Shown piece by piece: positions 8,107 to 54,500 of a stretch of 64,000 bases of DNA (positions are counted from its first letter, which is position 1; each line of letters starts with the position of its first letter). Position numbers and translations under genes: made by a program. Source of the stretch: Escherichia coli (GTDB lineage: Bacteria; Pseudomonadota; Gammaproteobacteria; Enterobacterales; Enterobacteriaceae); the NCBI RefSeq assembly GCF_011045215.1, contig NZ_CP049201.1; one strand, given 5' to 3'. Under the pieces are notes generated by a model, which was not told the origin of the DNA, did no database searches, and worked only from the letters and a program-made list of their open reading frames with translations.

Positions 8107-8194
8107 GGTGAGGTGTCCGAGTGGCTGAAGGAGCACGCCTGGAAAGTGTGTATACGGCAACGTATCGGGGGTTCGAATCCCCCCCTCACCGCCA
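8107..8194 (+). tRNA. serW: tRNA-Ser (anticodon GGA), 88 nt, long variable arm
   Basis: GGTGAGGTGTCCGAGTGGCTGAAGGAGCACGCCTGGAAAGTGTGTATACGGCAACGTATCGGGGGTTCGAATCCCCCCCTCACCGCCA; position directly after infA identifies serW. Confidence 0.92.
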
Positions 8195-16506: not shown

Positions 16507-19356
16507 TCAGAAGGTCACATTCAGCGTGGCCTGACCGTTATAGCCTTCGGCGCTGTTGCCGCTGACACTGTGGGCATAACCGGCCTGAACGCCCAGGGTG
16601 ATATTTTCCCGGACACGGGCTTCCAGTCCGGCCTGCAGGTCCAGTGACGTGCCATTCCGGGACGGTGAAAACGTCATGTTACTGCCGGCGGCGGCTGTAC
16701 CCATGCTCATGTCACCCCGGGAGCTGAAAGTGCGGATAACAGAAGGCTGTACCCACCAGTTCACCGGCAGTTCACTCACACGGTGTTTTGCACTGTCGCG
16801 CAGAGTGTCACGGGATGAGGTGCCTTCGCCAAAAGTCATATCGTTGTGGCTGCCCAGACGGAAGCCGGCACGCACATGTTGTGCACTGCCATGCCCGAAC
16901 TTCACATAACCGGCGTTATCCTGGCCGTCATCCAGGGAGAGCCCCTGCCAGGTGTACTGCAGTTGTGGCTCCAGCATCAGGTTGTCAGTGATACTGAAGG
17001 GCAGACCGGTTTCCAGTGAGCCCAGCCAGCCCCAGCCCCGGGCGCGGAAGTCGTTATTGTCCGATGACGCTTTCATGCTGTGGCGGGTTCCCTGGGCCAC
17101 AATGTCAGCCCACAGGCCGGAGGACGTGTGTACCAGATTCAGGTATCCGCCCAGGCTGCCGGCATCATCCCGGACCGTGCCGGCACGGGAGCCGTCATCA
17201 TCCTTAACATCAACGGAAGAATGGCCAGCAGCACCATACACTCCTGTCGTCAGTGACATACCGGCAACCTCTGTTCTCAGCAGGTCACCCTCCAGACGGA
17301 CGAGGCCATAGCTGCCGCTGCTTTCCGGCGTGGCCCCACGGGCAATACCACCGTTGTTATCGTGCCCGAGATGACCGCCCTGAATGCTGAGACGGACGCT
17401 GTTATTTTCACCGCTTACACCGGTCTGATGGCTGCGGGAACCTGCCAGAATCCGGTCATAGTCCATTGCCTGTGTCAGCATGGAGGCATACAGGGGGACT
17501 TCAGCACGATAAGCATTTTCACTGCGCAGGTACCAGTCTTCATCGCTGTCACGGTTCAGGGTGTAGTTAAAGGCGCCGGCCTGAAGCGGGCGACTCAGGG
17601 CAAACGCACCTTCTTCTGTGGTAGCACCATTCTGTGCATCCACAACCCGGATACCCTGTCCGGAGGTTGCCACCCCGAGGTTACTGTTTCCGACATTTGT
17701 AAACGCAAGCCAGGTTTTGCCGGTTGCCTGACCACCATTAATCACCAGCTGGTCAGAGGCATTACTGCCATCAAGGCTGACACGCATATTGATGGTGCCG
17801 CCCTGGCCGGTGAGGTTCGTGGTGGTTAGTTTATGGAACGTTACCGGGGAGTTACTTTTTGCAACAGCACGGCTCAGCGCGGCATCCGGTGTCGTCTGAT
17901 TATCAAAGTGAATCTCTCCTGCGTTAATAATATCGCCGGTACTGACCACATCACCATTCAGTACCATACTGGCGCCTTTACTGAGCTGTGTTCTGCCACT
18001 CAGACTTCCCCCGGCAGCCAGCGTCAGTGTTCCACGATGTCCGACAGTGGTGTTGCTGGCCAGTCCTCCGGCATTAACCGTAAAGCTGCCGCCATTTTCC
18101 AGCAGCAGGCCGCTGGCCTGACCGGATATGCCATCAATACTGAACTTACCGCTGGCATTGGTCCCCTCAACAGTGGCACCACTGTCTGCAATCAGGGCAC
18201 CACCGGATGTCATGGTGACATCTGTTGCCTTACCACCGGCAGACACTGCCAGGGTACCGCCGTCATCCACCAGTGTTTTCCAGGCTGAATGGCCCTCCAG
18301 TACATCCAGGCGACCGCCGGACTCCAGAACAACGCCGTCAGCCTTACCGTTTTCCACTGTGAAATTCCCCAGGCGGTTTGTGCCGGTGACAGTTGCAGCA
18401 GTACTGGTAACCAGTGCACCGCCCGTGTTCTGGGTGACTGCAGTGGCTTCCCCGCCGGCATGTACCCTCAGTTCACCGTTCTGATTTATGGTGGTGTTAC
18501 CGGCAGCGCCACCGGCCTTAACAACCTGCCAGCCCCCCTCGTTAATTACCGTGTTCAGCGCCAGTCCGTCCTTGTGCACATACTGGTAACCGCCATTCAG
18601 TGTGGTATTCAGGGCCCTTCCGTGTACCGACTGGTCACCACCTGCGTAAATGAGAGTGTCACGGGCTATCCCGGAAGATAAGATAATCTGCCGTCCATTT
18701 TTGTTGATGGTGGTGGATTCTGCTGTTCCCTGGACCTTCTGACCCGTGTACGAGTTGTCAGAATCCGGGCCGCCTTCTGCGCCGGTGTTGATGATGGTTC
18801 CTGTTGCCAGCCCGCCACTTTTAACGCTCTGGTAACCGTCGCGGTTGATAATTGTACCGGTGGCAACCCCGCCCTCATGAACCCACTGCTCGCCTCTGTT
18901 ATTCAGCGTGGTGTTCACCGCCAGCCCGTTCAGGCTCTGTCCCCCGCCGTCACGAATAACCGTATCACTGGCTGTTCCCCCCTCCAGCACGACCTGACGA
19001 CCATTTGTGGTGACAGTGGTGTTTCCGGCTATCCCGCCATTCTGTATCCATTGCCCACCGGTGTTTTCTTCACTGTCCGGCCCCAGTTCCAGCCCGGTAC
19101 TGATGGTCATTCCGTTGGCCGTACCGAGGACAATCTGGTTGTCATGATTTGTCAGTGTTCCGCCGCTCATGGTTTCTCCCGCCTGTACAACCGTGTCAGC
19201 AGCCAGTGCCGGGACTGACGTGACAGCAGCAAGAGACAGCGCAACCGCCACACCGGTGCGTTTTCCCCGTGAGCGGGCCAGTTCGGAGGCCACCACCAGG
19301 GTGCCCGTAATGTGATTCCATACCAGCCTGTAGCTGGTGTTCAGATGTCGTTTCAT
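16507..19356 (-). CDS. flu: Antigen 43 (Ag43) self-associating autotransporter, ~949-aa allele
   Basis: Track ORF 16507..19431(-); start at MKRHLNTSYRLVWNHITGTLVVASELARS (extended signal peptide); repetitive passenger domain; C-terminal beta-barrel ending ...GYNGQATLNVTF. Confidence 0.92.
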   Translation of the reverse strand: MKRHLNTSYRLVWNHITGTLVVASELARSRGKRTGVAVALSLAAVTSVPALAADTVVQAGETMSGGTLTNHDNQIVLGTANGMTISTGLELGPDSEENTGGQWIQNGGIAGNTTVTTNGRQVVLEGGTASDTVIRDGGGQSLNGLAVNTTLNNRGEQWVHEGGVATGTIINRDGYQSVKSGGLATGTIINTGAEGGPDSDNSYTGQKVQGTAESTTINKNGRQIILSSGIARDTLIYAGGDQSVHGRALNTTLNGGYQYVHKDGLALNTVINEGGWQVVKAGGAAGNTTINQNGELRVHAGGEATAVTQNTGGALVTSTAATVTGTNRLGNFTVENGKADGVVLESGGRLDVLEGHSAWKTLVDDGGTLAVSAGGKATDVTMTSGGALIADSGATVEGTNASGKFSIDGISGQASGLLLENGGSFTVNAGGLASNTTVGHRGTLTLAAGGSLSGRTQLSKGASMVLNGDVVSTGDIINAGEIHFDNQTTPDAALSRAVAKSNSPVTFHKLTTTNLTGQGGTINMRVSLDGSNASDQLVINGGQATGKTWLAFTNVGNSNLGVATSGQGIRVVDAQNGATTEEGAFALSRPLQAGAFNYTLNRDSDEDWYLRSENAYRAEVPLYASMLTQAMDYDRILAGSRSHQTGVSGENNSVRLSIQGGHLGHDNNGGIARGATPESSGSYGLVRLEGDLLRTEVAGMSLTTGVYGAAGHSSVDVKDDDGSRAGTVRDDAGSLGGYLNLVHTSSGLWADIVAQGTRHSMKASSDNNDFRARGWGWLGSLETGLPFSITDNLMLEPQLQYTWQGLSLDDGQDNAGYVKFGHGSAQHVRAGFRLGSHNDMTFGEGTSSRDTLRDSAKHRVSELPVNWWVQPSVIRTFSSRGDMSMGTAAAGSNMTFSPSRNGTSLDLQAGLEARVRENITLGVQAGYAHSVSGNSAEGYNGQATLNVTF

Positions 19357-19569
19357 CAGCTTTTCCTTACAGAGGGTGAATAAAAAAGCCGGTACCCACA
19401 AATGTGGATACCGGCAGGTACAAAACAGCATGGTCAGATAAAGTGGTTTTTCCCGGACATAAATGCTTCCCCTCTCTCATCCGCCAGAGAAGTATCAGTC
19501 CGTTGTGTGCAATTCCGTTCTGCATGATGAAGAGATTCAGCTGCCTTTTCGCAGGCCATTAACCACTAC

Positions 19570-19612
19570 AAACGATCGATACTAACGATCGATACCTGTT
19601 TTATCGATCGTT
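19570..19612 (-). promoter_or_regulatory. agn43 phase-variation switch: three clustered GATC (Dam) sites overlapping the expected OxyR operator
   Basis: ACGATCGATACTAACGATCGATACCTGTTTTATCGATCG; three GATC within ~40 bp, ~215-255 bp upstream of the flu start. Confidence 0.65.
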
Positions 19613-19727
19613 TTATTCTATTGATAGCAGGGCAGTCACGCAAGAGAAACAGGAGGGTATGAGGGGTTTGTATCATGTTTTCAGTTGGTTAACGCAATGT
19701 AATCAGGCATTTCCCCTGGCAGAGTGT

Positions 19728-20600
19728 TCAGAAGAAAATCCAGTTCCATACCGCACGGGCAACAGAGACCACCGTGTCACGAACAGCGCGCAGGGCCGTA
19801 CGGACAACAGAGGCAACACAGACGCTCTCCGCTGTGTCAAATATCCGGTCCACCGCACCGGTAAACTGTTCACGGGCCTGAGAGCGGACAGATTCCGTGC
19901 GCAGCTCGTCCTGCAGTCGGGTCATCAGGGGACTGGCGGCATGGTCGGGAAGCGCTGTCATGAGCGCACTGACCAGCGTATCCAGTTCCCAGCCGGTGCG
20001 GGCCGATACGGCCACAACCGGATGTGCGGGCCGGAACAGACGGAATACCGCCTCCGTTTTTTCGCGAATGTTCCGTGCCTGTGCGGGAGAGGGCTGAATG
20101 CCGGCCATATCCCATTCATGGCAGGGCTCCGTTTTGTCGGCCTGCGTCACCACAAACAGCACCTGCTGATGTCCCCGGTGCAGGATGTGTCGCCAGAAAT
20201 ACTCATCCACAGACAGGGCACGGTCATCGGCTTTAATCAGCCACAGTACCAGGTCAAGTTCAGGCAGAATGTCACGGTACAGGGCTTCATACTCTGCATC
20301 CCTGTCCCGGCTCTCGCCCACCCCGGGCAGGTCAGTGATAACCATGCTGTGACCGTGGCCACTCAGACGGAAGCGCTGCACTTCCCGGGTGCCGGCGTGA
20401 ACATCACTGACCGGGGTGACCTCCCCCTGAAACAGTGCATTACAGAGTGAGGATTTACCGGCCCCGCTTTTACCCATAATGCCAATCACGGGTTCGTGAC
20501 TGGTGAGTTTGCGCAGATGTTCCAGGATGTGACGGGAAAGTGAGTAAGGCAGGGAGGAGAGCGGTTTTTCAATTGCCTCAATGGCATCAGACGGATTCAT
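19728..20600 (-). CDS. YeeP/YfjP/YkfA-family GTPase (50S ribosome-binding GTPase fold)
   Basis: Track ORF 19728..20639(-); P-loop GIMGKSGAGKSS, DLPG switch motif; start likely at MNPSDAIEAIEK. Confidence 0.8.
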   Translation of the reverse strand: MNPSDAIEAIEKPLSSLPYSLSRHILEHLRKLTSHEPVIGIMGKSGAGKSSLCNALFQGEVTPVSDVHAGTREVQRFRLSGHGHSMVITDLPGVGESRDRDAEYEALYRDILPELDLVLWLIKADDRALSVDEYFWRHILHRGHQQVLFVVTQADKTEPCHEWDMAGIQPSPAQARNIREKTEAVFRLFRPAHPVVAVSARTGWELDTLVSALMTALPDHAASPLMTRLQDELRTESVRSQAREQFTGAVDRIFDTAESVCVASVVRTALRAVRDTVVSVARAVWNWIFF

Positions 20601-21254
20601 ACATGTATTCCCGGTGAAAAAAGACAAAACCCCGCGCACCGGAAAGGTGGCGGGGGATTCACGGAGATAATATCTGCCTGAAATTATTTAGGATGCAGGT
20701 ATCTTCAGATAATCATACCTCCAGAATTTTGTTCTTAATAGTTGAGTAGTGGTATTTGGTTTCCCTGAGAGAATATAAAGGTGAATCATACTGTATTGAG
20801 TTTGATTCTATTTGTACTGAGACAGGTATCTTCATGATTATAATCAAAAGTCGGGTGGATTGGTCTGGCGCTCATTATTTTTTCGAATAAACTCACTAAT
20901 TATTGTAACCATCCCAGAGGAGATGATTTTATGTATAATTGTGGTGAATCATATTCAGAATACGACATATCATTATCTGACGATGAAAACTATAACGATG
21001 ACTATTATCGTGAACGCCCGTGCCCGGGAGAAGTTTTCGGCTATGATAATACTGAGGATAATGATGAGGCGGCATCTGATTATGCACTAAAAATAAATGA
21101 AAACTCTGATTAATACGAGGTGGCTGATAATAAGACAATCAATGACAAATATTAATGAATAAACATAATCAGGCGCTCAATACTTGATTTAATCTGGGCG
21201 CCTGATTAAAATCTGAGGTAACATATAATAATTTTCATCAAAATAGTATTTATG

Positions 21255-22274
21255 TGTGTGATTCATAGACATCGTTTCAATTTTCTCAGCTCAAGTTCAA
21301 GCTTGTAATTCTGTTCCTGAATATGCTCCTTATTGGGCTGATAGCTTGCGTGAACGGCATCCGAGTATGGCGTTTTCTCAGCAAGTTCAAAGTAGCGCTC
21401 CATCGGCGTTTTACCGTTGTGAGCGCAATGAGGACGTTCCCAGTTATAGTAATGCTGCCATTCTGCCAGTCGCTCCTCCAAGTTATCAGTAGCGATATCT
21501 ACGGTAGCGTAAAACTCAGCTTTGTCTGTCTTTTGGGAGCGTTCAACTTTGCCATTAAGATGGGGTGATGCTGGTTTATTTGGACGAAACTTGATGCCGT
21601 ATTCTTTCAGTCTTTCCTGCACCTTAACGGCAAAAAACTCTCTTCCCCGGTCTGTCTGAAAGCGCTGAATCGGGAACGGCATTTCTTCAATAAAACAATC
21701 AATGAAATCCAGTGTGTTTGTAGTCGTGCGACGGGAATAGAGCCTCAGAACTCTGTAGCGAGTGCAATCATCAACAGATGTGTACTGATATAAGCCGGGG
21801 CCAATTTTACAGGTATCCATCTGAACCCAATCACCGGGAACAGGGCGTTCGTAGCGAATGAAATCAGCTTTACGCCGGAGTTTAACAACAGGTTTAACCT
21901 GATTCTGGCAAAGAACTTTGTGGATTGTTGCCATTGCAAGTGAGATTGAATGAAGTCGTTTTAACTCGCTTTGAATCCGTCTTGCACCCAGATTTCGCTG
22001 GGAACGTAACTCCAGAATCAGAGCGACTTCGCAAGTGCCGGTTTTCGTTGATGGCGAACGCTTAGGGCGACGGCTGTGGCTTTCCAGACCAGCGATGCCC
22101 TGAGCCAGATATCTGCGCCACCATTTACGCAATGTGGGGCGGGAAATACCGCAGCGACGGCATACGAACCCCGCGTCACCAGACGTTTCATAGAGTTTTA
22201 CCCACTGTAGCCGCTGCTGAATTTCCCTGTTCATAGTAAGGCATTATAGTGAAACGATGTCTATGAATCACACA
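21255..22274 (-). mobile_element. ~1.0-kb insertion sequence with 25-bp perfect terminal inverted repeats and one DDE transposase (IS481-family-like)
   Basis: Left end TGTGTGATTCATAGACATCGTTTCA (21255-21279) is the exact reverse complement of the right end (22250-22274); encloses the transposase ORF. Confidence 0.75.
21263..22234 (-). CDS. DDE transposase (323 aa), N-terminal HTH plus integrase-core domain
   Basis: Track ORF; N-terminal HTH region (CRRCGISRPTLRKWWRRY), integrase-core region with W..D-/-D-/-E spacing (WVQMDTC... TDRGREF ... ERSQKT). Confidence 0.8.
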   Translation of the reverse strand: MNREIQQRLQWVKLYETSGDAGFVCRRCGISRPTLRKWWRRYLAQGIAGLESHSRRPKRSPSTKTGTCEVALILELRSQRNLGARRIQSELKRLHSISLAMATIHKVLCQNQVKPVVKLRRKADFIRYERPVPGDWVQMDTCKIGPGLYQYTSVDDCTRYRVLRLYSRRTTTNTLDFIDCFIEEMPFPIQRFQTDRGREFFAVKVQERLKEYGIKFRPNKPASPHLNGKVERSQKTDKAEFYATVDIATDNLEERLAEWQHYYNWERPHCAHNGKTPMERYFELAEKTPYSDAVHASYQPNKEHIQEQNYKLELELRKLKRCL

Positions 22275-22424
22275 AGTAAAGAACCTTGCAGAGGCGTTCG
22301 AGCATTATAACGAATGGCATCCGCATAGTGCGCTGGGTTATCGCTCGCCACGGGAATATCTACGACAGCGGACCTGTAATGGGTTAAGTGATAACAGATG
22401 TCTGGAAATATAGGGGCAAATCCA
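22275..22424 (+). mobile_element. IS2 right-end remnant (last ~40 codons of the orfB transposase plus right terminal repeat)
   Basis: Encodes ...[42 protein letters not shown] and ends ...TGGAAATATAGGGGCAAATCCA, which matches the IS2 terminus as I remember it; truncated where the IS481-like element begins. Confidence 0.7.
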
Positions 22425-22598
22425 GCGTAATACCAACCATATAATCTCTAGGAGGAGTATTTTTACAATAGTAAGAACTATCATACATCCCCCTACAGAT
22501 TCAGAGAAGAAAAAGAATTAATTATCGTCAAAACTTTCGACAAATCACATCATTAACATGATAACAACTAACAAAGGACAAGCTAATGAAAGATGTGA

Positions 22599-23651
22599 TT
22601 ACTGCATCAATACGGTAGCTATCGCACTGCCAGAAAACGATCCAGCATCAATTCTGTTTGTATCTATAACCCTATATTGTGACGTTATATCAAATGTTCT
22701 ACTTCCACTGATAACCCCCGAAAATTCCTTCGCACCATCAACAGTCAATGTGCACTTTCCATTATCTCCACATCGAGTTACATTCCCCCCTTCCCCTGAT
22801 ATTAGATTACTACCTTTAATGGTTATATCTACTCTGGTTGGTGAACTGCAATTAATCACTAATCCGGCCTTAGCAAAGTGTCCATCACGAGCCTGGGCTG
22901 ATGTTATTGCATTATGATTTATTGATATATCTTTATTCCCTGCTATATTACAGGATGCCAGAACATTCACTCTTACAGGGGCATATCTGTTCTCCATATT
23001 AACTACTGCAGACTCAACACCCCCACCATCAGAACAATATTTTTCCCCCTTATACCATTCCTCAGATCCTATTTTTAGCGGAATGTTTAAATCATATATT
23101 CCGGCTAAAGCACTGCCCCTCTCTATCGTTACCCTCAATTTGGTACTCTGAAAGTTGTTATATACCAGAGGATATCTGTATCCCGGGACAATTTCTCCTT
23201 CTGGGAATGGTCTGTCATACCAATCATAGTTATCATAAACACCAACGTAAGTCTGATAACCATTATAAATACCACGTTTATTATACCCCCCGGAAATAAT
23301 CTGAATACTCCCTTTCAGACCATTACCCAATCGTATGTTATTACTATCAACTGGCATCGCAATCCATGTTGCCTGACTCTTTGAGCCTTTACCCGAAAGA
23401 ATCTTAACCGGCGAGCTAACAGGCACATTATGACGCTGGACCCAGCTAACAACTGCAGACGTTCTTGGTGCCAGACCGGGCAATACAATATCAAAATAAC
23501 TTGCTGTGTTTCCTGAGGAAATTGTTACATCCGGAATAGTAACATTGTTACCATCTAACTGCCACAATATTTGCATATCACGACAAGGTTCATATGCAAA
23601 TGAACAACCTGATATAAAAACAAAAAGATAAATTATTTTCTCACACCACAT
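22599..23651 (-). CDS. Secreted adhesin-like protein (~350 aa), possible fimbrial tip adhesin; AT-rich
   Basis: Track ORF 22599..23714(-); signal peptide MWCEKIIYLFVFISGCSFA; cysteine pairs; beta-rich C-terminus ending ...GSAIATVLMQ; no chaperone or usher gene nearby. Confidence 0.45.
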   Translation of the reverse strand: MWCEKIIYLFVFISGCSFAYEPCRDMQILWQLDGNNVTIPDVTISSGNTASYFDIVLPGLAPRTSAVVSWVQRHNVPVSSPVKILSGKGSKSQATWIAMPVDSNNIRLGNGLKGSIQIISGGYNKRGIYNGYQTYVGVYDNYDWYDRPFPEGEIVPGYRYPLVYNNFQSTKLRVTIERGSALAGIYDLNIPLKIGSEEWYKGEKYCSDGGGVESAVVNMENRYAPVRVNVLASCNIAGNKDISINHNAITSAQARDGHFAKAGLVINCSSPTRVDITIKGSNLISGEGGNVTRCGDNGKCTLTVDGAKEFSGVISGSRTFDITSQYRVIDTNRIDAGSFSGSAIATVLMQ

Positions 23652-24797
23652 ACCTTTCACACCTTGTATATCCCCAGACCAGAAAATCCCTGAGCGCATA
23701 AATAACCCTCTCACTACGAACCGAAGACAACTCCATTAACAACGGAAAAACAAACTCAGATACCTTTCCTGGTATTAAAACATCCTTCTCTTTTACTTTT
23801 TTTGCACATCTTCTCCTTAACCATAAAACAGAGAAAGAATAAAATTCGCACACAGGATATATAGATACTTTATCCCAGTAAATAACAAAAAAACGATCTT
23901 TTTATCTACAAAAACGACACAATAAAGACAAACAAACCAAAAACACAAAAAAACACCAAAAATAACTCCAATTGGCAGCAAAATAACAAATAAAAAGATC
24001 GTTTAATTTGCATTAAGCAGCATTTTTAACCGTACAAACAAAAAAGCAAAAATTAGACAAAAATCAAAAACAAGTATATCAAAAAATGGAAAAACAAAAG
24101 ACAGTAATATTATGAGTTGCTTTTTTGTTCACATGTAAACAGGTGAATTTCATTTCAGAGATACTGATTATCCTGAAAATACTTATTCATTAATTACCAA
24201 CACTTTTTCATGTAAACATCACGCTAATTGCATGGAAAAAGAAAGGAAACTTTTTAGTCGGCATGAAGACACTTTTGTAATTACTGTACAGATACTAATT
24301 GTTCCTGCCCTTCCTGACCCGATAGCGTGACAATCCATTTACATGGTTCCATGAAATTGTGAACTGCCTGATAATCTAATGTCGTGTCAACACCACGATC
24401 TTTGACCGTCTTATATATCACTGGTACTAATAGATTAACCCGACCACAGGAAAAATATTTCCGTCAGGTATTTGGATATGCCCGGAACCAAGATCCACAA
24501 AACAGACCACTGACGTTTGTCAATGTAATACTGGCCTTCTATGGTAAATGTTGTGCTCATCAATACACAGATGTGATTTGTCTGAACCTTTACTATGTTA
24601 CTATGGATGGTATTTTACGGGAGAGCTGGAAATACGTTACGCATCCGGAGCTCTTCCCAAAGAATTAACAGCTTGAGCTCGAAAAGGGAAACCTGTTCTG
24701 AATTCCACCTCGGAAAATATAATAACCAGTTTTCTTATGACTATTATGCTTAAACACTGCCCAGATATGTCAGGGAAGAAAGAGTATGATAGACTCA

Positions 24798-25833: not shown

Positions 25834-26475
25834 GTGTTAATATTAAATTATGGCGATATTCTTCTTGTTAACCCATCTTTGATGACAAGCTTTCTTACAT
25901 TTTCAGATAAATTCACTGAAGTACCTCTGAATGAAGATACAGTAAACCATTATATACACCATCGCCATACAGGGGAAAAACCAACCTACGACGGGCCTGT
26001 TCATTTTCTGAAAAAATGTTTTGCCTACCCGGAAGTGTTGTCAGAACTCATAAACAATATAAATTATGAAAATCATATCCATCCGGAATTCAGAGAAGCT
26101 GTCTGTTTCTCGTTATTGTCAATTTTTAATACCCGCCCCGCTTTAATAAACTTCCTTTCATCTGGCATCCCAACTTTTTCAGGAAAAGTACGAAACATAT
26201 TACTGTCAGATATATCACGACAATGGAAGTTGCGCGATATATCTGAATATGTATATATGAGTGAAAGTCTGATAAAGAAAAAACTTCTGTCTGAAAACAC
26301 ATGTTTCAGTAAAATTTTACTCGAAGTACGAATGTTTTCAGCCAGAAACTTACTGGAACAGAAATACTCAGTGAAACACGTTGCTGAAAAATGTGGCTAT
26401 TCCAGTACATCCTACTTTGTCTATCTTTTCAGACAACACTTTAATATAACACCACGACAATTCACCATGATATGA
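25834..26475 (+). CDS. AraC-family transcriptional regulator, AppY/EnvY-like
   Basis: Track ORF; C-terminal double HTH ...RQWKLRDISEYVYMSESLIKKKLLSENTCFSKILLEVRMFSARNLLEQKYSVKHVAEKCGYSSTSYFVYLFRQHFNITPRQF. Confidence 0.7.
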   Translation: MLILNYGDILLVNPSLMTSFLTFSDKFTEVPLNEDTVNHYIHHRHTGEKPTYDGPVHFLKKCFAYPEVLSELINNINYENHIHPEFREAVCFSLLSIFNTRPALINFLSSGIPTFSGKVRNILLSDISRQWKLRDISEYVYMSESLIKKKLLSENTCFSKILLEVRMFSARNLLEQKYSVKHVAEKCGYSSTSYFVYLFRQHFNITPRQFTMI

Positions 26476-27372: not shown

Positions 27373-27461
27373 TCGCCCTCTTGAGGGTTTTTTTATCTTT
27401 TCTGACCAAATGCGTATTTTCATGAAAGGAGATCACTCAATAACCCCCTGTGTCAGCATAG

Positions 27462-28004
27462 TTGTCGCCTCAACTTTTTAAGGAGATAACAATGCCAGGA
27501 CAACCAATATCAAGTGAGCTCAAAGAGAAAGGACTGATATGGCTTTTACCACCATACTGCTGGTCACATCGTCAGATAGCCCGTAAGCTGAAGATCAGTG
27601 CCTCAGTTGTATCAAAATGGAGATATGAGTTAGTGGAGCAAGGACTTTTACCTGAAAATGAAAAGATTACCTCCGTTGATGTTGAAGACTGGACACCGGA
27701 GCGTCGATTCTCAGTTGTTCTTGAGACGGCTACGCTGTCAGAAATGGAGCTTGCTGATTATTGTCGACGCATGGGATTGTTTGTTGAACAGGTTAAAGAA
27801 TGGCGGGCTATCTCAATTCAGGCGCATGAAAAAAAATTGACGGAAAATATTCGAACAGACAGGGCATTGCGTGACGCAAAAAATAAGTTACGAGAACTGG
27901 AGAAAGAGCTTAAGCGCAAAGATAAAGCTCTGGCGGAAGCTGCAGCCCTGCTTATATTGAGGGAAAAGTTCAATGCCCTCTGGGACAACAGCGAGGAAGA
28001 CTGA
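27462..28004 (+). CDS. IS3-family transposase OrfA (HTH plus coiled-coil region)
   Basis: Track ORF; alternative start MPGQPISSELKEK at ~27492; leucine/charged-rich C-terminal region. Confidence 0.8.
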   Translation: MSPQLFKEITMPGQPISSELKEKGLIWLLPPYCWSHRQIARKLKISASVVSKWRYELVEQGLLPENEKITSVDVEDWTPERRFSVVLETATLSEMELADYCRRMGLFVEQVKEWRAISIQAHEKKLTENIRTDRALRDAKNKLRELEKELKRKDKALAEAAALLILREKFNALWDNSEED

Positions 28005-29029
28005 CCCCTCTCCTGGAGTGGCGTAAAATTATTGCTCTTGTCCGTGAGGCCATCTCCAACGGCGCCCGGAAAAGTCAGACTTGTAGGTGTATCGGTATTT
28101 CTATTCGGACACTTCAGCGCTGGACTGATGGCAACGTTATTACCACGGATCGAAGATCCGATACTGTAAACAGATCTCCCCGAAATAAGCTGTCAGAAGC
28201 GGAAAGATTGCAGATACTGGAGTTGTGCAACTCTCCAGAGTTTGCATCCTTGCCTCCAAATGTAATCGTGCCAACTCTGGCAGACAGAGGGACTTATATT
28301 GCTTCTGAATCAACCTTTTATCGTGTACTGAAATCAGCCAACCAGTTGACGAAAAGATCCCGAGAATGCCAGTACAAACGGCCTGATGTACTCAGGGCTG
28401 TTGCGCCGAATCAAGTCTGGAGTTGGGACATCAGCTATTTGCCGTCCTGGGTCAGAAGCCAGCATTTTTACCTCTATATGATCGTCGATATTTACAGTCG
28501 CAAAATTATTGCTGCAGAGGTATTTGCCAGCGAGTCTGGAACACATGCAGCAGAACTACTCCAGCGTGCAGTATGGAATGAAAAATGTTCATCCAACAAT
28601 CTGGTACTCCATTCTGATAACGGTGGTCCCATGCGCAGTTATACGTTGTTGGCGAAAATGTATGCGCTTGGAGTGCTAAGTTCTTATTCCCGGCCAAGAG
28701 TCAGCAATGATAACCCTTACTCAGAATCTTTGTTCCGGACTCTCAAATATTGTCCCTGGTGGCCTGAGAACGGTTTTCGCACTATTGATGATGCCAGAGT
28801 ATGGGTAAACCGTTTTGTAAACTGGTACAACTTTGAACATAAGCACAGCGGGATCAAATACGTCACGCCAGCCGAGCGTCATCAAGGTAATGACATGAAA
28901 ATACTGGCAGCCAGAAAAGCAGTATACCAGCTGGCACGCGAACAGCACCCTGAACGTTGGGGAAAGCATCTACGTAACTGGGACTACATATCAGAAGTCT
29001 ACCTGAATCCAGAAAAAGAGGCTGCATAA
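27990..29029 (+). CDS. IS3-family transposase OrfB (DDE integrase core), expected to be expressed by -1 frameshift from orfA
   Basis: ATG-bounded track ORF 28208..29029, but the frame is open upstream to ~27990 and overlaps the orfA end near GGGAAAAG; integrase-core region with W..D-/-D-/-E spacing (WSWDISY ... HSDNGGP ... ESLFRTLK). Start coordinate approximate. Confidence 0.75.
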
Positions 29030-29143
29030 CGTAATTTTATTACAAAAGGCGACAACTACCTTGAAAAACGCCGGTTACTCACCGATCTCCTTCACGGTAA
29101 TACGCAAATATCCACAACCTTGTTTGTTGTACCAGCGGAAATT

Positions 29144-30524: not shown

Positions 30525-30958
30525 TTCTCCATGGTCTTACATGAATTATTGTATGCCCCGTCCATTACAAAATTATTTATCAACTCACGTAAAACCACCT
30601 TTTGTTCATTATCCTGAGCATACTGAATCTGGCATTCAATTTCGTCTACAGTCAGTCTTATATCAGATTCATTAATTATTTCCGTTATTCGTTTTCTCAG
30701 ATATTCAGGCTGGCCTTTCGTGTTTCGTAAAACAAGACAGAATAACATGTCATAAAGGGCACAATGCCATGAATAACCATCATTGGTTAAAATAAGTCCC
30801 CAAACCTGCTCCGCAATAAGCTGCAGAATAAAGGATTCAGCCTGTTCTGTTTGTCCGGGAGCAACACGGTATAGCGGAGCAATCACAGCAAAAAACAGTT
30901 CATTTAACCAGGATTCCACCTCCTGCGTATTACCGTGAAGGAGATCGGTGAGTAACAT
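30521..30958 (-). CDS. Hypothetical protein (145 aa); N-terminus is encoded by IS terminal-repeat sequence, probably a 5'-truncated gene
   Basis: Track ORF; the first 12 codons (MLLTDLLHGNTQ) are encoded by the inverted IS3-type repeat copy at 30924-30955 and the ATG lies at the IS21-family terminus. Confidence 0.4.
   Translation of the reverse strand: MLLTDLLHGNTQEVESWLNELFFAVIAPLYRVAPGQTEQAESFILQLIAEQVWGLILTNDGYSWHCALYDMLFCLVLRNTKGQPEYLRKRITEIINESDIRLTVDEIECQIQYAQDNEQKVVLRELINNFVMDGAYNNSCKTMEK
30924..30955 (-). repeat. Isolated inverted copy of the IS3-family right terminal repeat
   Basis: GCGTATTACCGTGAAGGAGATCGGTGAGTAAC is the reverse complement of 29073-29104; together they bracket the 29107-30923 segment. 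Confidence 0.7.
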
Positions 30959-31008
30959 CGATGGAGATCGGTTCGTGTCACTTTCACAGAACCGTTTTTA
31001 AATTACCT

Positions 31009-45352: not shown

Positions 45353-45571
45353 CTATTTACGATAGTATCTTCGCATTTGTAGATAGAGTTGTAACCAAAT
45401 CCCAGCACCTCCCCATAAGCCAACTACTGCGCCAATTATTCCGTATTTTACATACACCTCAGAAGGTATTGGTTCCCGAGCTATAAACCAGATACTAACC
45501 ACTATTCCAATAGAGCAAGTAGCTATAGATATAAGTAACAACTTAATAAGAAGTAGTAGATGTTTTTTCAT
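45353..45571 (-). CDS. cdiI: Putative CdiI immunity protein, small inner-membrane protein (72 aa)
   Basis: Track ORF; start overlaps the cdiA stop; two predicted transmembrane helices. Confidence 0.65.
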   Translation of the reverse strand: MKKHLLLLIKLLLISIATCSIGIVVSIWFIAREPIPSEVYVKYGIIGAVVGLWGGAGIWLQLYLQMRRYYRK

Positions 45572-48500
45572 TTTTTGTCTCCATCAACTTCTTTTTGCGT
45601 TGCGCTGCTTGCACCTTCTGATACGAATGAACCAACAAATCCACCAAATGTTCCTGGTATAGAACTCATTTGGCCGCCTTGATACATACCGTATCCGATA
45701 GACTTTTCCGAATATTGCAGTGAATATTTACTGGCGTCCATTCCCAGTTGATTTTTGATGTATTGAGCTTCTAACTTATTAGTAATTGAAGCGCCAATGT
45801 TATAGCCAAGGCCTGTACCAGCCATGCTACCCACTACTGATGCGGTACTGTCCTGGCCTTCAATCTGGCTGCTCATGTAAGCGCTACCGGCACCCAACAA
45901 CTGGTTAGCGTAATATCCTTTCCCGGCTGTACCTACACCAGTCAAGCCTGACATCATGAAACTGAGATAATCGAACTTATCACCGATATTTCCCGTACCA
46001 ATTTGTACCGCACCATTAGCCCCATAGCTCAGCCCGGCACTAACAAATTTTTCCGTCAGCGTGGCTGATGACGTTAACAACGAACCCGCTCCGGCAACCG
46101 TACCCCAGTAATTTTCCGGTTCCCCGAAGAAAGCCAGAGCCCTGTCACCCTTCGACGTATTACTGTTCAGATAATTCAGGTCGTAGCTGTTGCCTTCAGC
46201 CACGTAATCCTTCACCTCCTGATTAGTCAGTGAACCATACAGCCAGCTAGGTCGGCCCGCCGCGCTGAGCCCGCCCTCAATATTCCATTTATCTTCCCCG
46301 GACAGAGCCGTCAGAGGATCTGCGGCCACATCAATGTGTAATTTCTGTCGGTTCTCTGCGCTTAATACAGCATATTTATTCTGAATATCGCCGCAGTCTC
46401 CACCCGCTTTACGACAGGCCGTCATTTCTCTGTCAAAAGCATGCGCCTCGTCGTAGCTGAGGTAGTTATTCTCAACTGTTGTCTTACCTGACTGTGCGCC
46501 GGCTACCGCTGAAGCCCCCGAGTCGCCCACCAGACCACCGGCCAGGCCGGCAGCAACCGTTGCCAGCGTGGAGACCGTCTGTTTCTCTGTCTCACTCAGT
46601 TCACTCACCGGTTTATCGTACATCTGTGTGGCTATCATTCCCACCACCTCGCCGGTGGCTGCACCTGCAGCACCGGCAAGAGCATTATTTCCCTGTGCCA
46701 GAGACAGTGCGGCATTCACCACGGCATGGGCGGCCACATTTGCAGCCTTATTCACCTCACCTGTAACCGGGTCTGTGGTCATGGTTTTCACCACTTCAGC
46801 CAGATACGGTGCTGCACCACCTGCCAGGGCTGCACTCAGATTACCGCCGGCCAGCCCCTGTACTGCTGCCGTTGCGGCCTGTATCGCCTGCTGGTATTTG
46901 CCTCCCGTTCCAAAACCGGAGGCCGCCATACCGTTATTGTAAGCCCGCTGTGCCACATCCTGTTCCGTGAACGGTTTTCCTGCTGCCTCAAGCTCTGCAC
47001 GGGCCTGATTCAGTGCTGCCGGGTCCCGTTTCGCTTTCTCACCGGCTATCTGTCCTTCCGTTCTGGCAATATCTGCCACCTGGTTACCAATCTCACCAAT
47101 GAGTTGCGCCTGCTGCAACCGCTGCTGCTCTTTTTCCCTGTCAAAGATGGGGGACAGCGTCTGGTTTGCATGCGCAACGTCACGGTTCAGGTCTGCCACA
47201 TCCTGTTTCTGGCTCTGTGTATCCCGGATAGTGATATTCCCGGCAGACACAGCCGACTGCGTGGTACTGTCCGCATGGCCTTCATGATTTGCACCGACCA
47301 GCAGATTGTTTGCCATGTTCCCCAGGAAATTTCCGGCAACACTGCCACCGGTACTGAGCCCTGCACTCTGATGTTCCGTTTTAAAGTCAGCCCGGTTTTC
47401 AGTGTCACTGAAGCCCAGTGTGCCGGTATCCAGCCTGTTTTTATCTGCCGTTGCCGTGGACGCAATCACCGCACCGTTCAGTTGTGTATGCTGTCCGGTC
47501 GTGACATCAAACCCGCCCCTGCCGGCAAAAATCCCTGTCTGCTCCTGCACACTGTCGTGGTTACTGTGCATTTTATCCCGGCTGAGGCTCACACTCGCCG
47601 AACCGCTCATGGACCCGAAAGTGAAGCTGCCTCCGGCGCTGGCATTCTGCTGTTTACTGTCATAATGGTCACTGTCCTGCTCACTGGTCAGTGTCAGATG
47701 GCGACCGGCATCCACTTTCACGGTTTCTCCACTGGCCTGCGCCCCGGTAAGTGTGGTGTCACGCCCACTGATAATGGTCAGCTGTTTTCCCGCATCCACC
47801 GTGGTTTCTGTATGGGTGGTACCGTTGCCTTTTTCACTGCCCTTACCCTGGTTTGCGCTGGCTGACAGACTGAAACCAGGCCCTCCGGGCCCCACACCGA
47901 TACCGACACCCACGCTGCCACCACTGGATGTGTTCTTTCCTTCCAGCTTTGACGTGTTTTCTGCTGATACCAGATTCACGTCACGGTTTGCCTGCAGCAG
48001 AACGTTGTTCCCGGCCTTTATCTGACCGCCCTGTATCGTCAGGTCACCATCCACGCCCTTCACGCCGGAGCCGGTGGCCTGAATACTGAGGTTATTACCT
48101 GCGGTCAGTGTACTGCCCTTCGCCACCGTCTGCTCTGACTGCTGTTCTGATTTCGAAGACTGGCTGCCGTAAGAGAGGCTGATACCCACGGTATTGTTAT
48201 TCTCTTTCTGGTTGCCCTGTGCTTCTGCCAGTCGTCCGGCCTGCACGGCCTGAGCCCCCGAGAGCGCGGCCTTCACCCCCTGCAGGGCTTCAAGCCGGCT
48301 GTTTCCGGCAGATTTCGCCGCCTGTACGGTCTCCACCGTCGTGTTCAGGGCGCTGCCCGCTGTGCCGGACAGGGCAAGCGTCAGACCGGAGGTTTTCTGC
48401 TCCACCGTATGTGTCTGCACATGCCGGTCAGTGGCGGCGGTAATGCTGACCTCCTTACCACTGAGTGCCATGTCCCTGCCGGCAATCAGGTCAGAGCCGT

Positions 48501-51500
48501 TGACGGTCAACCGGTTACCTGCCTGAAGGGAAACATCACCGTGAACACTCCCCACCGTGCTGCCTTTCTGCGTGGTGTCTGTTGCGGTGTCCGTGACCTT
48601 CAGACTCTGGCTGCCCACGCTGAATCCCACACCTCCGGAGCTCATCAGTCCGGATTTTTTCTCCTGTTTCAGGTGTGTTTCACGGTTGCTTTCTGTCAGC
48701 GTTCCGATACTCAGGTTATTTCCGGCAGCCAGGGAGACACGGTTATCCCCGGCCACACTGCTGCCCGTGACGTTCAGATTATGTCCGGCACCGATACTGA
48801 CCGTATCCCCGTTCAGTTCACTGCCCGTCATGGTCCGGCGGTCAGTGACATCATGCGTGGTAGTGGTGGTTTTCGATAACATCCCGCTGTTGCCGGTCAC
48901 TTTATGGTATTCATCCAGCGAGCGGGTATTCTGTGCACCGGTCAGCGTCACGTCATGACCCGCCATCAGGGCCAGGCCTTTCTGAGCTGACAGCAATGCC
49001 GCCTGTGACGTCATATCCCGTCCGGCGGTCAGCGTGACATCACCGTTACCGGCAAGCGTGCTGCCCGTACTCTGTGTGACGCCCTGCGACAGACGATTAT
49101 TTTTATCCCAGATAATATTGTCCTGCGCGGATGTGGTCACTGTGGAGAATGTCATATCCCTGCCGGCACTGAGTTGCGTCAGACTGTCCTTACCCTGGTT
49201 CACCACCGTTGCTGCCGTCAGGTTTATGTCCCGTCCGGCCTGCAGCACCAGTCTGCCCTGGTCATTCTGCACATATACGCCAGCCACACTGTCGATGCTG
49301 GTACGTTCAAAATGGTTCTGTCCGGCGTCACTCTGTGCCGTACGGGTGGTGGTGGTCAGACTGATATCCCGTCCGGCCATCGCCAGCAGGCTGTCCGTGG
49401 CCTGCAGCAGCCCGCCGGTACTGTTAATATCCGTCCGGGCCGTCAGGCTGACATTTGCTCCCTGAATGGTGCCGGCCTGGTTGTGAATGTTTTCTGCACT
49501 GAGCTGCACGGCCTGCTTCCCGGCCAGTTTACCGCTGTTAAACAGGTCACCATCCAGCTTCATCACCATGTCCCTGCCGGCAATCAGCGCACCGGCACTG
49601 TTCACATCACCGGGTTTTACACGGGCATACACCTGAGGTACCTGAACCGTCTGCGTGCTGCCGTCCGGCAGTGTCACCGTGGTGTTAACCAGCCAGACAA
49701 TATCACCGGTCAGTAACGCCATCTGCTCAGCAGTCAGCGCCACACCTGGTGTCAGGTTGTATTGCTTACCAAATGCAATACCCGCATCCATTAACGCCTT
49801 AAACTGCTCTTCATCATTACTGTATCCGTCCAGGTACCGTTGCCCGGTCAGAGCGACAACCTGCTCACGAATCAGACGCTGTTCGTAAAAACCATCCCCC
49901 AGGCGTTTGAGCATGTTATCCCCGTTCTGAGAAAACGCCTTCTGCATGTAATCACTGCCCAGCCACGTCTTCTGGTTCGTAAAACGCGGGTCCGTTTCAA
50001 CCAGATATGGCACATTCACTGCCGGATTTGTTTTAAACAGGCTGCTGTCCGGCAGACGGGTATCCGGCCCGGCAACATGGATACTGCCCTGAGGTGCGCT
50101 GACTTCAAACTGCTGCCCCGGCAACAGAATGACCGGTTCACCGGCTGACACCACCGGGCGAAGCGGTATCCGGTCAGTAACGGCTACTGTCGCATCCACA
50201 TTTCCGGTCAGTCCTGTCTGTACATCCGTTCCCTGTGGCTTCAGGGGAGAAAGCGTGACCTGGCTGCCCTGAACCTGTCCGTGGCTGGTGAGCTCTCCCG
50301 GCTTCAGCGTGATGGTCTGAATGACGGGGGGCGGCTCGTAAGGGGAAATTCTTTCCCCCTGCCTGTCATTTTTATTTTTTCTTTTTATCCGGTAATAATA
50401 TGTGGATGTCCCTTTATCAGTAACATGGCGCTCTCCGCTGACACTGACGTTTTCCACATCACCGGCCTGCATATCCAGCAGACCACCTGCAACCACCTGG
50501 CTCTTGTCATTAAGCAGTTTGTCTGCCACAACCGTCATGCCGGCACCGGACAGTATTTTCCCCGGGTCGGAGTCTTTTACCCGGGTTTCCTCCACGGTAC
50601 GGGTGTATTCATATTTTGTGAACCGGTCGTTGTTATGTCCGGTATCATCCGGCGTGTTCAGGTTCAGCAGTCCATCAGAGGAGTTGTTATCAATGAACAC
50701 CCCCTCATCTTTTGCATTCCAGCGGACATCTGACCCGCGATGCTGATACTCAGTCACCTTTTCCGTGGAAACCACCACGCGCTCCGTGGTGAAATGGTCA
50801 TTGACGTTATTGATTTGTCCGGCACTCAGTACCAGATATCCGGCGGCTTCAATAGTGGCACTGTGATTATTCAGTACACCGGTTTTACCTGTGGCGGTGC
50901 CATTCGCATCCAGCGTGCCACCGATATGCATATCACCTGCACTGTAAATCAGGCTGTGCGTCCGGTTATTCAGGGTCTGTACCCCCAAGTCCACACGCTC
51001 ACGCCCGGCCAGCGTCGCCGCCACGCCATTTTCTTCCAGATTATTAAATGTGGCAGCACTGACACCAACAGCATCGCCGTAGATTCGCCCGGTACCGGAA
51101 TTCGTCAGGGTGTTCGCCTGAAGATGCGTATATTTCCCGTCAATCAGCCCACGGTTCAGCAGTGTGTCCGTCACGTTAAGCCAGGTCTGCCCGGCACTGA
51201 TTTCACCTTTCCCGGTGTTTTCAAGGCGGATGCTGTTCAGGTCAAGTCGGCTGCCTGCCAGCAGGCTGCCGGTATTAGAGACATCGCCATTAACGGAAAG
51301 CGTAAGGTTTCCGTTCGCAATAGTCTGACCACTGTTACTGAACGCTGTGTTACTTTTCAGCGTTATATCGCCCGGGGAAAGCAGTTTCCCGTCACCACCG
51401 AGCTGACCGGCATCCACAGAGACTGACTGCCCGGCCTTAACCACACCGTCACGGTTCGAAAACGCCAGCTGACGGCCACTGACAGACAATGTCGCGCCGG

Positions 51501-54500
51501 AAGAGAGCACGCCATCATTATTACTGAGCGTCCTGTCTGCCATAACCGTAAGCGCCCTGTCTGCCAGAATACTGCCCTCCTGGTTATCAAGGTCCTGCGT
51601 CGTGATGTGTATTGTCTGCGCTTCCAGCCCCTGGCCGGTATTCTGCGTGTGGCGATTGATAAACTGCAGGGCGTTCAGCGTAATGGCAGAACCACTGCGA
51701 ATCAGACCAGAGACGTTGTCCACAACGCCCCGTACACTGTCGAACAGAATGTCGCCCACAGACTGTATCTGTCCGTGGCTGTTCTGCAGGCCTCCCGTAT
51801 GCAGACGGAGTTCACCTTCACTGACCAGCCGGCCACCCTCACGGTTATCCAGCGAGGTGGTGCTCAGGTCAGCTGTCGTTTTCGCCCCCACGGTCCCGCC
51901 CCGGTTATCCATTGCTCCGGTACTGACAGTCAGTTCCTGCAGGCTGTTCAGCGTACCCCCTCTGTTATCCAGCGTCCGGCCTGCGCTATTAATGCTGATG
52001 CCTTTCCCCTGAATAAGACCGGACTGATTGTTCAGCGCCAGACTGTTCCGGCCGGGCAGACCGGTCGCCACAATCTGACCATTCGCCACCACCTGACCGG
52101 ATGTATTGTTAACCACGCCTGCAGTCAGGGACAGCGCATCTCCCGACAAAAGCACACCGGCAGTGCTGTCCAGTGTGCCGGCATTCAGCGTCATCGGGCC
52201 CTGACTGATAACCCCGCCCCGGTCACCACTGTTACGGTTGCTCAGTGTGTCAGCACGGAGATTCAGTGTGGCACCGCTCTGTATCAGACCACCTGCATCA
52301 TTGCTGATATCCGTCGAGGAAAGGGTCAGTGACTGCTGTGCCACCAGTCTGCCGCCCTGATTATCAGAGCGGGTGACATCCAGCCTGCTGTTACCGTTGC
52401 TGACCACCGTCCCCTGCTGATTTTCCAGCACATTCAGGTGCGCATTCAGGTCCCCGCCGGCGGCAAGCGTCCCTTCCTGATTACTGACATCGCCACCACT
52501 CAGCAACATATCCGTCCCGGCCTTCAGTGCGCCTTTCTGGTTCATCAGCGTACCTGACGATATCTGTAATGACGCCTGACTCCCCAGCACGCCCTGACGG
52601 TTATCGAGCGTTCCGGCGTTCAGGGTCATATCCTTCTGACCCGCCATAAATCCCTGCTGGTTATTCAGCATACCGGCCCGTACTGTCAGGGTACCGGCGC
52701 TGCTGATACCACCCCGTGTTTTCGTGTTCCGGTTACTGAGAACCCCGTCCTGTACATCCAGCGTCATGTCACTGCCGGACTGAATCAGACCATCATCAGA
52801 GACCAGTTCGCTGCCTGACACAGACAGCGTTTTCTGTGAAAGCAGTCTGCCGGACGTATTATCCAGCGCACCATCCAGCGTCACGGACAGCCCGTCAGAC
52901 ACCACCGTACCCTGGTGGTTATTCAGACTCCCTGCCGAAATATCCAGCCTGCCGGCGGACTCCATTCGTCCCTCAGTATTGCTGACAGCCTGCTGTGTTT
53001 TTATCCTGCCCGTTCCGGCAGCAGCTGAAATCAGTCCGTTGTCGTTATTCAGTGCCTGTGTATTAATCAGGATGTCACGGCTGGCAATCAGACTTCCCTG
53101 CTGGTTATCCACGGCGCCGGTTGTCCTCACCTGCAGACTACCTGACTGCGCCGCCTGCACTTTCCCCCTGCGATTATCAAGGCTCAGTGCATCCAGGCGC
53201 ACCGCGCCATTTGCCGCAAGCAGCCCTTCCCGGTTATCCACGCTTCCCGGCAGACTCAGCGAAAAATCCCCTGTTCCCGTCTGAATCAGACTGCCTTTAC
53301 GATTTGACAGGCTCTGTGCCGATATCTGCAGTGTGTCGGCATTTACCGTGCCACCATTATTGCTGAACTGCCCGGCAGTCCGGGCGGAAAGCGTACCGGC
53401 ACTCAGTTGTGCATTCTGTGTGGACAGATTTCCGCTGCCTGCATCCAGCTCAGTATGTTGTCCCTGTATCCGGCTGTTGCTTAAATCCAGCCCCTGCCCC
53501 TTCAGTTGCATGTCCCCACCGGACAGAACCTGTCCGTGTGCCGCCAGTTCGCCGGTGGTACTGACAGTCAGGTTGCCCGCTGCCGCCAGACGTCCGTCAT
53601 CTTTCACCCCGGCGGCCAGCAGACTCCGCTCACCGCCGGTCAGACGCGCTGTCTGAATCCGGGTGTTGCGGCGTGATGCCACAGAGCCTGTATGGGTGAA
53701 TGCACCATCACTCTGTATCTGCGTATCCTGCCCCGCATAAACAGAACCACTGTTATGCAGCTCCCGGGTTGTCGCCAGATGCACATCCGTTTTCGCACTG
53801 ATACTGCCACTGTTTTCAATACGTCCGTCAGCCGTCAGGGTAACCGCCCCTGCCTGCGCACCAATATGACCGGCGTTACGAACCCCCACCCCCGTTTCCG
53901 TACCGACAAGGCGAATTTTTCCGGCATACATTCCACCAAGGCTGGACACATCCAGCGCCACCTGTGGCTGCGAAGAGGCATCAGCGGCTTTTTTCTCAGT
54001 CTGCCCGTGTGCAATATCCACATTGTTACGTCCGGTGGTCACTTTCAGGTCCTGCGCCCAGATACCCGCATTAATCTTCACAGACCGGGCAATGATATCG
54101 GTATAATCCGTGCGCGAGGCATCCATCCCTTTGCCCGTAATCTGAATCTCACCACGTTCAACACTGAATCCGGTCAGACTGCCGTTTTTCATCTGAGGCT
54201 GCCCCGTGGTCAGCGTGGCCCGGTTCGCATTAATAAAACCGCACCCGTCGCAACTGATGCCGGCCGGGTTCGCAATCACCACCTGCGCCTTTTTCCCGGC
54301 AACCTCAACAAAACCGTTCAACTGGCTGGGATTGCGACTGTTCACTTCATTAAGAATGATTCGGGCCTCTCCCTTCGCCAGCCACGGGTTACCGGCAACC
54401 ATGCCGCCCAGTTGGGTCTGCACATTTTTATGCGAGTTATTCAGAATGACACCCTGATGACTGACATCAAACTGACTGTAAGTATTGTGCGATACCCCAC

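Follow-up and report, generated by a model that had tools for sequence, protein, structure and literature searches.

The 1,020-bp insertion sequence that borders a 150-bp fragment of IS2 in the 64,000-nucleotide stretch of Escherichia coli DNA analysed here (the window) is very probably a copy of a known IS481-family element that entered a serW-associated genomic island long ago at the heptamer ATTTATG and whose right side was later replaced by the joint with the IS2 stump. The left junction can be followed through related genomes with filled and empty versions of the same site. The right junction is shared with two other strains and coincides to the base with the end of the element.

A complete IS481-family element abuts an IS2 remnant

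A sequence-only reading of this DNA had given the span 21255–22424 for an IS481-like element and the truncated IS2 end beside it. That span covers two pieces: the terminal repeats bound the 1,020 bp from 21255 to 22274, and the rest is IS2. The features are as follows.

21255–22274, minus strand: complete IS481-family insertion sequence related to ISEc18, 1,020 bp, recognized by its identity to other copies
21255–21279: 25-bp terminal inverted repeat, TGTGTGATTCATAGACATCGTTTCA, on the side of the transposase gene's 3′ end; the perfect reverse complement of 22250–22274
22250–22274: 25-bp terminal inverted repeat on the side of the transposase gene's 5′ end; the reverse complement of TGTGTGATTCATAGACATCGTTTCA
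21263–22234, minus strand: intact transposase open reading frame (ORF) of 323 aa with HTH domains and an rve core (ORF list, Pfam and NCBIfam)
22275–22424, plus strand: IS2 remnant, nt 1182–1331 of 1,331 (blastn against the full IS2 of strain YSP8-1)

The perfect inverted repeats reported in the sequence-only reading are present, and their length is exactly 25 bp, with the adjacent base mismatching both inward and outward. A 31-nt arm with 94% identity, returned by a repeat search, was rejected as a chance extension through the A/T-rich flanks. By our own arithmetic, chance alone would yield ~2e-6 perfect 25-bp inverted pairs per 64 kb. Homology to copies from at least seven different contexts ends exactly at 21255 and 22274; the copies compared come from E. 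coli EC1515, D8, EC11, DSM 103246 and YSP8-1, from two plasmids and from Serratia sp. H1w. The window holds a single IS481-like copy, with no second or inverted one.

The transposase is encoded by a single, uninterrupted ORF on the minus strand, with no programmed frameshift, unlike in IS3. Its product matches the Pfam integrase-core families rve and rve_3 and, at the N terminus, HTH_32 and HTH_28. The motifs VQMD(140)T, QTD(195)RG and GKVE(231)R, with D-55-D-36-E spacing, mark D140, D195 and E231 as candidate catalytic residues. Against the NCBIfam model of the IS481 family (NF033577), the protein scores 261.8 bits (cut-off of 224, E value of 8e-78), as compared to just 84.9 bits against the IS3 model (cut-off of 160). 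The repeats start with TGTGTG and finish with CACACA, giving the element the TGT...ACA ends that characterize the IS481 family (PMC10045372). Judged by its profile score, single ORF, DDE core and ends, the element is a member of this family, in agreement with the sequence-only reading. Members are also recognized by a short direct target duplication of 2–15 bp, which is mostly 6 bp long (PMC10045372). The window copy has none, whereas sister copies, among them the same insertion in strain EC11, carry duplications of 7 bp; the absence at the window copy is therefore secondary and no argument against IS481 membership.

At the nucleotide level, the element is 99.8% identical to its counterpart in E. 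coli C5, 97.6–97.9% identical to copies in a group of six strains that includes EC11, and 92.5–93.5% identical to the copies that NCBI labels ISEc18. These comparisons place it in the IS481 family with ISEc18 as its closest relative, and public genomes already contain it in annotated form. The threshold for isoforms in ISfinder is an identity of roughly at least 95% at the nucleotide level. With copies labelled by the NCBI annotation pipeline PGAP ('IS481-like element ISEc18 family transposase') as reference, the window element appears to fall below the identity expected for the same IS as ISEc18. PGAP labels window-type copies merely 'IS481 family transposase', without the ISEc18 name. In the literature we found ISEc18 in table listings of resistance-genomics papers and found no characterization of it.

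The 150 bp that adjoin the element align without gaps to the IS2 of YSP8-1 with 96.7% identity (5 mismatches) and finish at the IS2 right terminus (...GGGGCAAATCCA), which bears out the proposal that the last ~150 bp of IS2 lie here. Positions 22276–22413 comprise, in reading frame 2, the final 45 codons of orfB, the transposase gene of IS2, and the stop codon, and Pfam recognizes the C terminus of rve_3. No further IS2 sequence was found in the 64-kb window. With one end and a 45-codon orfB tail, the stump is inert, as judged from its sequence. This IS2 copy is located 175 bp downstream of a rare ORF of 371 aa, for which searches of Pfam, NCBIfam and PDB sequences returned no match. A promoter and terminator scan of 20900–22700 gave no more sites than in shuffled sequences.

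An inherited insertion in an SpLE1-type island

The element resides in a genomic island that starts after a tRNA gene.

8107–8194, plus strand: tRNA-Ser (serW), at which the element's SpLE1-like island is attached (ARAGORN; collinear with C5 and with SpLE1 of strain Sakai)

The chromosomal backbone of the window (ftsK-lrp-trxB-cydDC-aat-infA) has a best E. coli match of 99.3%. The island is collinear with that of C5 up to 25772, and its cargo includes a CbtA/YeeU-type toxin–antitoxin module, antirestriction genes, an Ag43/Cah autotransporter and a YeeP-like GTPase. SpLE1 is annotated in Sakai as a phage-like element and is an integrative element at serW.

Two heptamers flank the element.

21248–21254: ATTTATG, left repeat of the original 7-bp target-site duplication, still in place (EC11 filled site, Sakai empty site)
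22275–22281: AGTAAAG, IS2 heptamer (nt 1182–1188) at the IS end, which fits NNTNANN and differs from the left flank

Because these flanks do not match, the window copy is without a target-site duplication, just as the sequence-only reading had stated. Six sister copies do have matched 7-bp direct repeats: CCTGACT, TTTTATC, CCTAAAG, ATTTATG, ACTAAAA and GCTGACG. We pooled 80 distinct flanks of the terminal repeat, taken from 55 contigs of other species as well as from E. coli, and obtained the palindromic target preference NNTNANN, with T at −5 in 67 of the 80 flanks and A at −3 in 73. Both window flanks conform to it; the probability of matching T and A at two positions by chance is ~1/16. Canonical IS2 reads AGCAAAG at nt 1182–1188, as compared to AGTAAAG in the window, so the first 3 bp past the IS end are uncertain as IS2, and the fit to the consensus hangs on one base.

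Inspection of the flanks in related strains, which had been proposed as a check, revealed both states of the left-hand site. In EC11 and five other genomes, the element occupies this position between two copies of ATTTATG. In O157 Sakai, SpLE1 has the corresponding empty site, with a single ATTTATG and no IS (reading ...AAAATAGTATTTATGTACTAACTAAGCTGGATTTG..., laid out as ...CATCAAAATAGT-ATTTATG-TACTAACTAAGCTGGATTTGAACC...), and DSM 103246 has a diverged version of this empty site. To the right of ATTTATG, EC11, Sakai and DSM 103246 read TACTAACTAAGC and then TGGATTTGAACCTCTATTTCTGGG..., which resembles an inward-reading IS2 right terminus. This original right flank, consisting of TACTAACTAAGC followed by the old IS2-like terminus and IS66/IS3 debris, is missing in the window. 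The filled sites of the EC11 type and the empty site of Sakai together indicate that the window insertion is old, inherited and was later stripped of its right flank. On this comparison of sites, the window copy is the inherited insertion at the SpLE1 site, and its left junction is original, whereas its right junction is not.

Origin of the joint with IS2

The element first inserted at ATTTATG in an SpLE1-type island, where its neighbours were a small hypothetical gene on one side and an old IS2-like end on the other, a step that is documented at the sequence level by the filled and empty sites. Later, in a lineage common to the window, C5 and 52F4, everything originally to the right of the IS was replaced. 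The resulting breakpoint is flush with the end of the IS481-like element and lies inside IS2 (nt 1181/1182), not at an IS2 end. From the flush position of the joint at the IS end and the match of the adjoining heptamer to the target preference, we infer that the joint was probably made by the IS481-like transposase and neither by IS2 nor by random deletion. Since nt 1181/1182 is not an IS2 end, the IS2 transposase is not implicated.

We considered two routes by which this transposase could have produced the joint. In the first, a second copy of the element would insert into IS2 at nt 1182–1188 and then recombine with the resident copy, with loss of IS2 nt 1–1188, one IS copy and the intervening DNA. 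Relatives in the IS3 and IS481 families presumably transpose by way of a circular copy, and because of this analogy we lean toward the first route, to which we assign about an even chance. In the second, which we hold to be somewhat less probable, IS2 would be attacked in cis by the right end of the resident copy, and an adjacent deletion would result in a single step. The data are compatible with both routes and with more than one order of events. The earlier proposal that IS2 was truncated by insertion followed by deletion covers either route and agrees with our results in outline, in that the joint is flush, AGTAAAG fits NNTNANN and the original right flank is gone.

An exchange between two copies would also yield a reciprocal product, reading IS2(...AGTAAAG), the IS and then ATTTATGTACTAAC. 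A synthetic 300-nt query for the precursor or reciprocal junction, in which IS2 up to nt 1188 is followed by the IS, had no contiguous match in 5,426 complete E. coli genomes. The best matches to this query, on pig ETEC plasmids, have the two parts ~185 bp further apart and the IS outside the IS2-like end. Metagenome contigs scanned by exact pattern for this junction also returned 0 matches, and no genome was found in which the IS2 site at 22424/22425 is empty or holds a full IS2. Separately, we observed repeated proximity to IS3-family right ends among the cases at hand: the window copy lies in IS2, the SpLE1 site lies 12 bp from an IS2-like end, and the element on the pig ETEC plasmids lies ~46 bp from an IS2-like end.

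Among the 5,426 complete E. coli genomes, the joint itself occurs only in C5, in two island copies, and in 52F4. The C5 chromosome has the element in three places, two of them with the joint, and these two joint copies sit in paralogous ~9 kb blocks. The block to the right of the joint is likewise found only in C5 and 52F4, and in part in RM8082, where it begins past the 371-aa ORF. From ~20918 or 21221 through 23750, the window is nearly identical to C5 and 52F4, with 4 differences from the first C5 copy and a 6-bp indel plus 3 substitutions relative to the second C5 copy and 52F4; further left it is 2–3% divergent. Near-identity around the joint and divergence further left indicate that the joint was a single past event, whose product homologous recombination afterwards carried from one island copy to another. 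The unit that spread in this way comprises the IS, the IS2 stump and the 371-aa ORF block.

We also weighed whether the joint could have arisen without the IS481-like transposase, through an illegitimate or IS2-driven deletion, or whether 21255–22424 is a composite mobile unit. The absent duplication and the failure to find a precursor agree with such origins, IS-rich regions accumulate deletions, and in other strains (L007, L008 and L067) copies of the ISEc18 type have IS2 close by. However, a random deletion does not predict an endpoint that matches the IS end to the base next to a heptamer that fits the target consensus, and a deletion driven by IS2 is at odds with a breakpoint (nt 1181/1182) that is no IS2 end. 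The pair of IS and stump was seen only within the same larger block and with the same flanks, never at a new site with a duplication of its own, and the composite unit of 1,170 bp was rejected on this ground. Taken together, we regard these origins as improbable and favor a joint made by the IS481-like transposase. An assembly artefact was ruled out, as the joint is identical in three independent assemblies.

Perfect terminal repeats do not date the insertion

The sequence-only reading had taken the perfect repeats as a sign of recent activity. In 55 contigs that belong to species representatives of many bacterial groups, including isolates of Legionella, Burkholderia/Caballeronia, Serratia and Erwinia and several metagenome-assembled genomes (MAGs), the 25-bp repeat recurs without a mismatch, and the transposases on many of these contigs are 52–77% identical to the window protein. 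In a Verrucomicrobia MAG contig, both arms are exact, and the DNA alignment to the window element consists of the end alone (31 nt). The ISEc18 copy of YSP8-1 (L007) has perfect repeats despite a frameshifted transposase gene. Exact repeats in such distant and frameshifted copies show that perfect ends are a feature which the group conserves and from which no date can be read; with a site that is shared between strains as well, recent activity is not supported. The invariance of the 25-bp ends across phyla, the strict NNTNANN target and the repeated proximity to IS3-family right ends are in themselves mildly unusual.

A survey of copy number, which had been suggested as a check, lent recent activity no support. 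Any match to the element occurs in 890 of 5,426 complete E. coli genomes and a full-length copy in 217, at a median of 1 and a maximum of 3 places per genome. Identity of at least 99% is confined to C5 (from a cow) and 52F4 (from a calf); the six strains in the 97.6–97.9% group include EC11, GN02350 and 8D, and most E. coli copies, some of them labelled ISEc18, are ~93% identical. The left junction is common to at least eight other E. coli genomes, namely C5, 52F4 and six EC11-type strains, whose copies are ~2% divergent.

These data bear on a further alternative, in which a recently active element inserted afresh into IS2 in the window strain. Perfect 25-bp repeats and an intact 323-aa ORF with D140, D195 and E231 would be expected of such an element, and the matched 7-bp duplications at several sites indicate that the family has moved within E. 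coli. A fresh insertion, however, predicts that 7 bp are duplicated and that IS2 sequence flanks the element left and right, and the window shows neither. The left junction, shared with at least eight other genomes in which EC11-type copies have diverged by 2%, argues against it, as does the presence of the IS2 junction in 52F4 and twice in C5. Perfect repeats carry little weight here, given that they also occur in the frameshifted L007 copy and alongside transposases of 52–77% identity, and one copy in the window with a median of one per genome is not what recent activity predicts. We therefore consider a fresh insertion very improbable and retain the old insertion with a later replacement of its right side. 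The window copy is intact in its coding sequence and could be functional, and the sequence gives no indication of its recent transposition.

The least probable account, to which we give hardly any weight, is an inversion between the IS end and the IS2-like right end of SpLE1: such an end does lie in opposite orientation 12 bp from the insertion site in SpLE1-type islands, but it is only ~82% identical to the stump (over 49 bp) as compared to 96.7% for IS2, the inversion predicts GCTTAGTTAGTACATAAAT beyond the IS2 terminus where the window reads GCGTAATACCAACC..., and the second, inverted IS copy is absent from the window, so that this account was rejected for its low identity and wrongly predicted flank.

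Significance

Both the element and its island are of known kinds, and the IS-mediated rearrangement is a routine one. The value of the analysis is mainly one of annotation: the element is 1,020 bp long, ISEc18-related and of the IS481 family, and the adjoining 150 bp are an inert IS2 stump. The filled and empty sites further document the remodelling of one SpLE1-type serW island at an IS end, which brought the rare block with the 371-aa ORF, PapB and EAL beside the Ag43–GTPase module. Our results also counsel caution when only the sequence is read, in that perfect terminal repeats in the ISEc18-type group do not date movement.

We think it unlikely that ISEc18-type elements form a distinct cross-phylum subgroup of the IS481 family, with near-invariant ends, transposases of ~50–60% identity, a strict 7-bp NNTNANN target and a possible tendency toward IS3-family right ends. 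Should this be true and undescribed, one IS family would be homing to the termini of another.

Comparison with known systems

The prototype of the family, IS481 of Bordetella pertussis, resembles the window element in its DDE transposase, which fits the family profile and is encoded by one ORF of ~1 kb, in its TGT...ACA ends and in its preference for a short palindromic target; the target of IS481 itself is NCTAGN. The two differ in copy number, with about one per genome for the window element as compared to hundreds for IS481 in B. pertussis. They also differ in target duplication, which is 7 bp at NNTNANN in the group of the window element and mostly 6 bp in the family (PMC10045372).

ISEc18 resembles the window element in length (1,020–1,021 bp), in its identical 25-bp terminal repeats, in its single-ORF layout, in the 7-bp duplications of related copies and in its host species, E. 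coli. The window element is nevertheless only 92.5–93% identical to copies so labelled by PGAP at the nucleotide level and ~91% identical at the amino-acid level over the readable part of one labelled, frameshifted copy (L007). The stump, for its part, resembles IS2 of the IS3 family in that it includes the orfB C terminus and the right terminal repeat. It differs from IS2 in having neither a left end nor a functional gene, and it represents a slightly diverged isoform (5 of the 150 bp differ).

The island is most readily compared to SpLE1 of E. coli O157:H7 Sakai, with which it shares its location at serW, 96% identity over 16507–21255 (an Ag43/AidA-type adhesin, the GTPase and a small ORF) and further common blocks at 30569–37678. 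Where Sakai has the empty site and, ~930 bp further right, a 352-bp IS481-like fragment, the window has instead the full IS, the IS2 stump and the rare 371-aa ORF/PapB/EAL block.

Target preference of the IS481-like element

The flanks of the repeats in the window and in comparison loci L001–L067 reveal a 7-bp duplication and a strong palindromic target preference, NNTNANN, with T at position -5 in 67 and A at position -3 in 73 of 80 distinct flanks. The heptamer TCTAATG is common to two copies from different strains, neither of which has a matched duplication, and it lies on opposite sides of them (left flank at L003 3001; right flank at L007 3529, in YSP8-1). These flanks may represent one duplication that was split via recombination between copies.

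Independent insertions of the ISEc18 type, to which the window element is related, also lie inside, or ~12–150 bp from, the right termini of IS2 or of IS3-family elements.

Insertions in or near IS2 or IS3-family right ends
window, 22275
L002, 4039–4087
L067, 2382–2836
L005, 2665–3001

This closeness could reflect a target preference or mere crowding in IS-rich DNA.

A partial copy occurs in O157 Sakai (L069, NC_002695.2), where a 352-bp fragment of the IS481-like transposase gene (L069 5935–6286) is 94% identical to window 21896–22246. It is overlapped by a CDS, ECs_5709 (L069 5774–6274), annotated as 'glycolate transporter', which is probably a wrongly annotated IS remnant. Fragments of this kind likely explain many of the ~680 partial matches in E. 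coli genomes.

DNA flanking the insertion

Immediately to the left of the IS insertion site and downstream of a 60-aa ORF (20931–21113) is a hairpin that is kept in both Sakai and EC11, the empty-site and filled-site strains, respectively. Because it is without a T tract, it was not called in the terminator scan. To the right, an ORF directly follows the IS2 stump.

Features bordering the insertion
21166–21208, hairpin, 14 bp, 93% complementary (TAATCAGGCGCTCA / TGGGCGCCTGATTA)
22599–23714, minus strand, 371-aa ORF

Sequence searches of Pfam, NCBIfam and the PDB returned no match to the 371-aa ORF, which has a possible lipoprotein signal (...FVFISGC) following an internal Met and adjoins genes for a PapB/FocB-type regulator and an EAL-domain protein. 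Of the 5,426 complete E. coli genomes surveyed, only C5 and 52F4 have this ORF. The C5 chromosome carries two paralogous blocks of ~9 kb, L001 and L009, at about 3.77 Mb and 3.98 Mb, each with the order Ag43, GTPase, IS481-like element, IS2 stump, 371-aa ORF, PapB and EAL; overall identity between the blocks is 96.5%, and from the IS to the right they are almost identical.

The window and C5 diverge past 25772.

Features of window 25772–64000
25834–26475, AraC-type regulator
about 27460–29030, further IS3-family element
31009–33311, IS21-like ISEc12
45568–54804, 3,078-aa ORF
genes by related-strain annotation: AAA protein, 3'-5' exonuclease, PAPS reductase (named ibrA in Sakai)

In the region of the 3,078-aa ORF, the annotation of related strains includes a 'VENN motif pre-toxin domain-containing protein', and the ORF is probably CdiA-like.

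Terminal repeats across bacteria

The exact 25-bp terminal repeat of the element (21255–21279 and 22250–22274) is present in 55 species-representative contigs (L012–L066), whose sources include Legionella, Burkholderia/Caballeronia, Serratia, Erwinia and Edwardsiella, as well as Verrucomicrobia and Desulfovibrionaceae metagenome-assembled genomes. The transposases encoded by these contigs are often just 52–77% identical to that of the window, and the ends are thus conserved far better than the gene they enclose.
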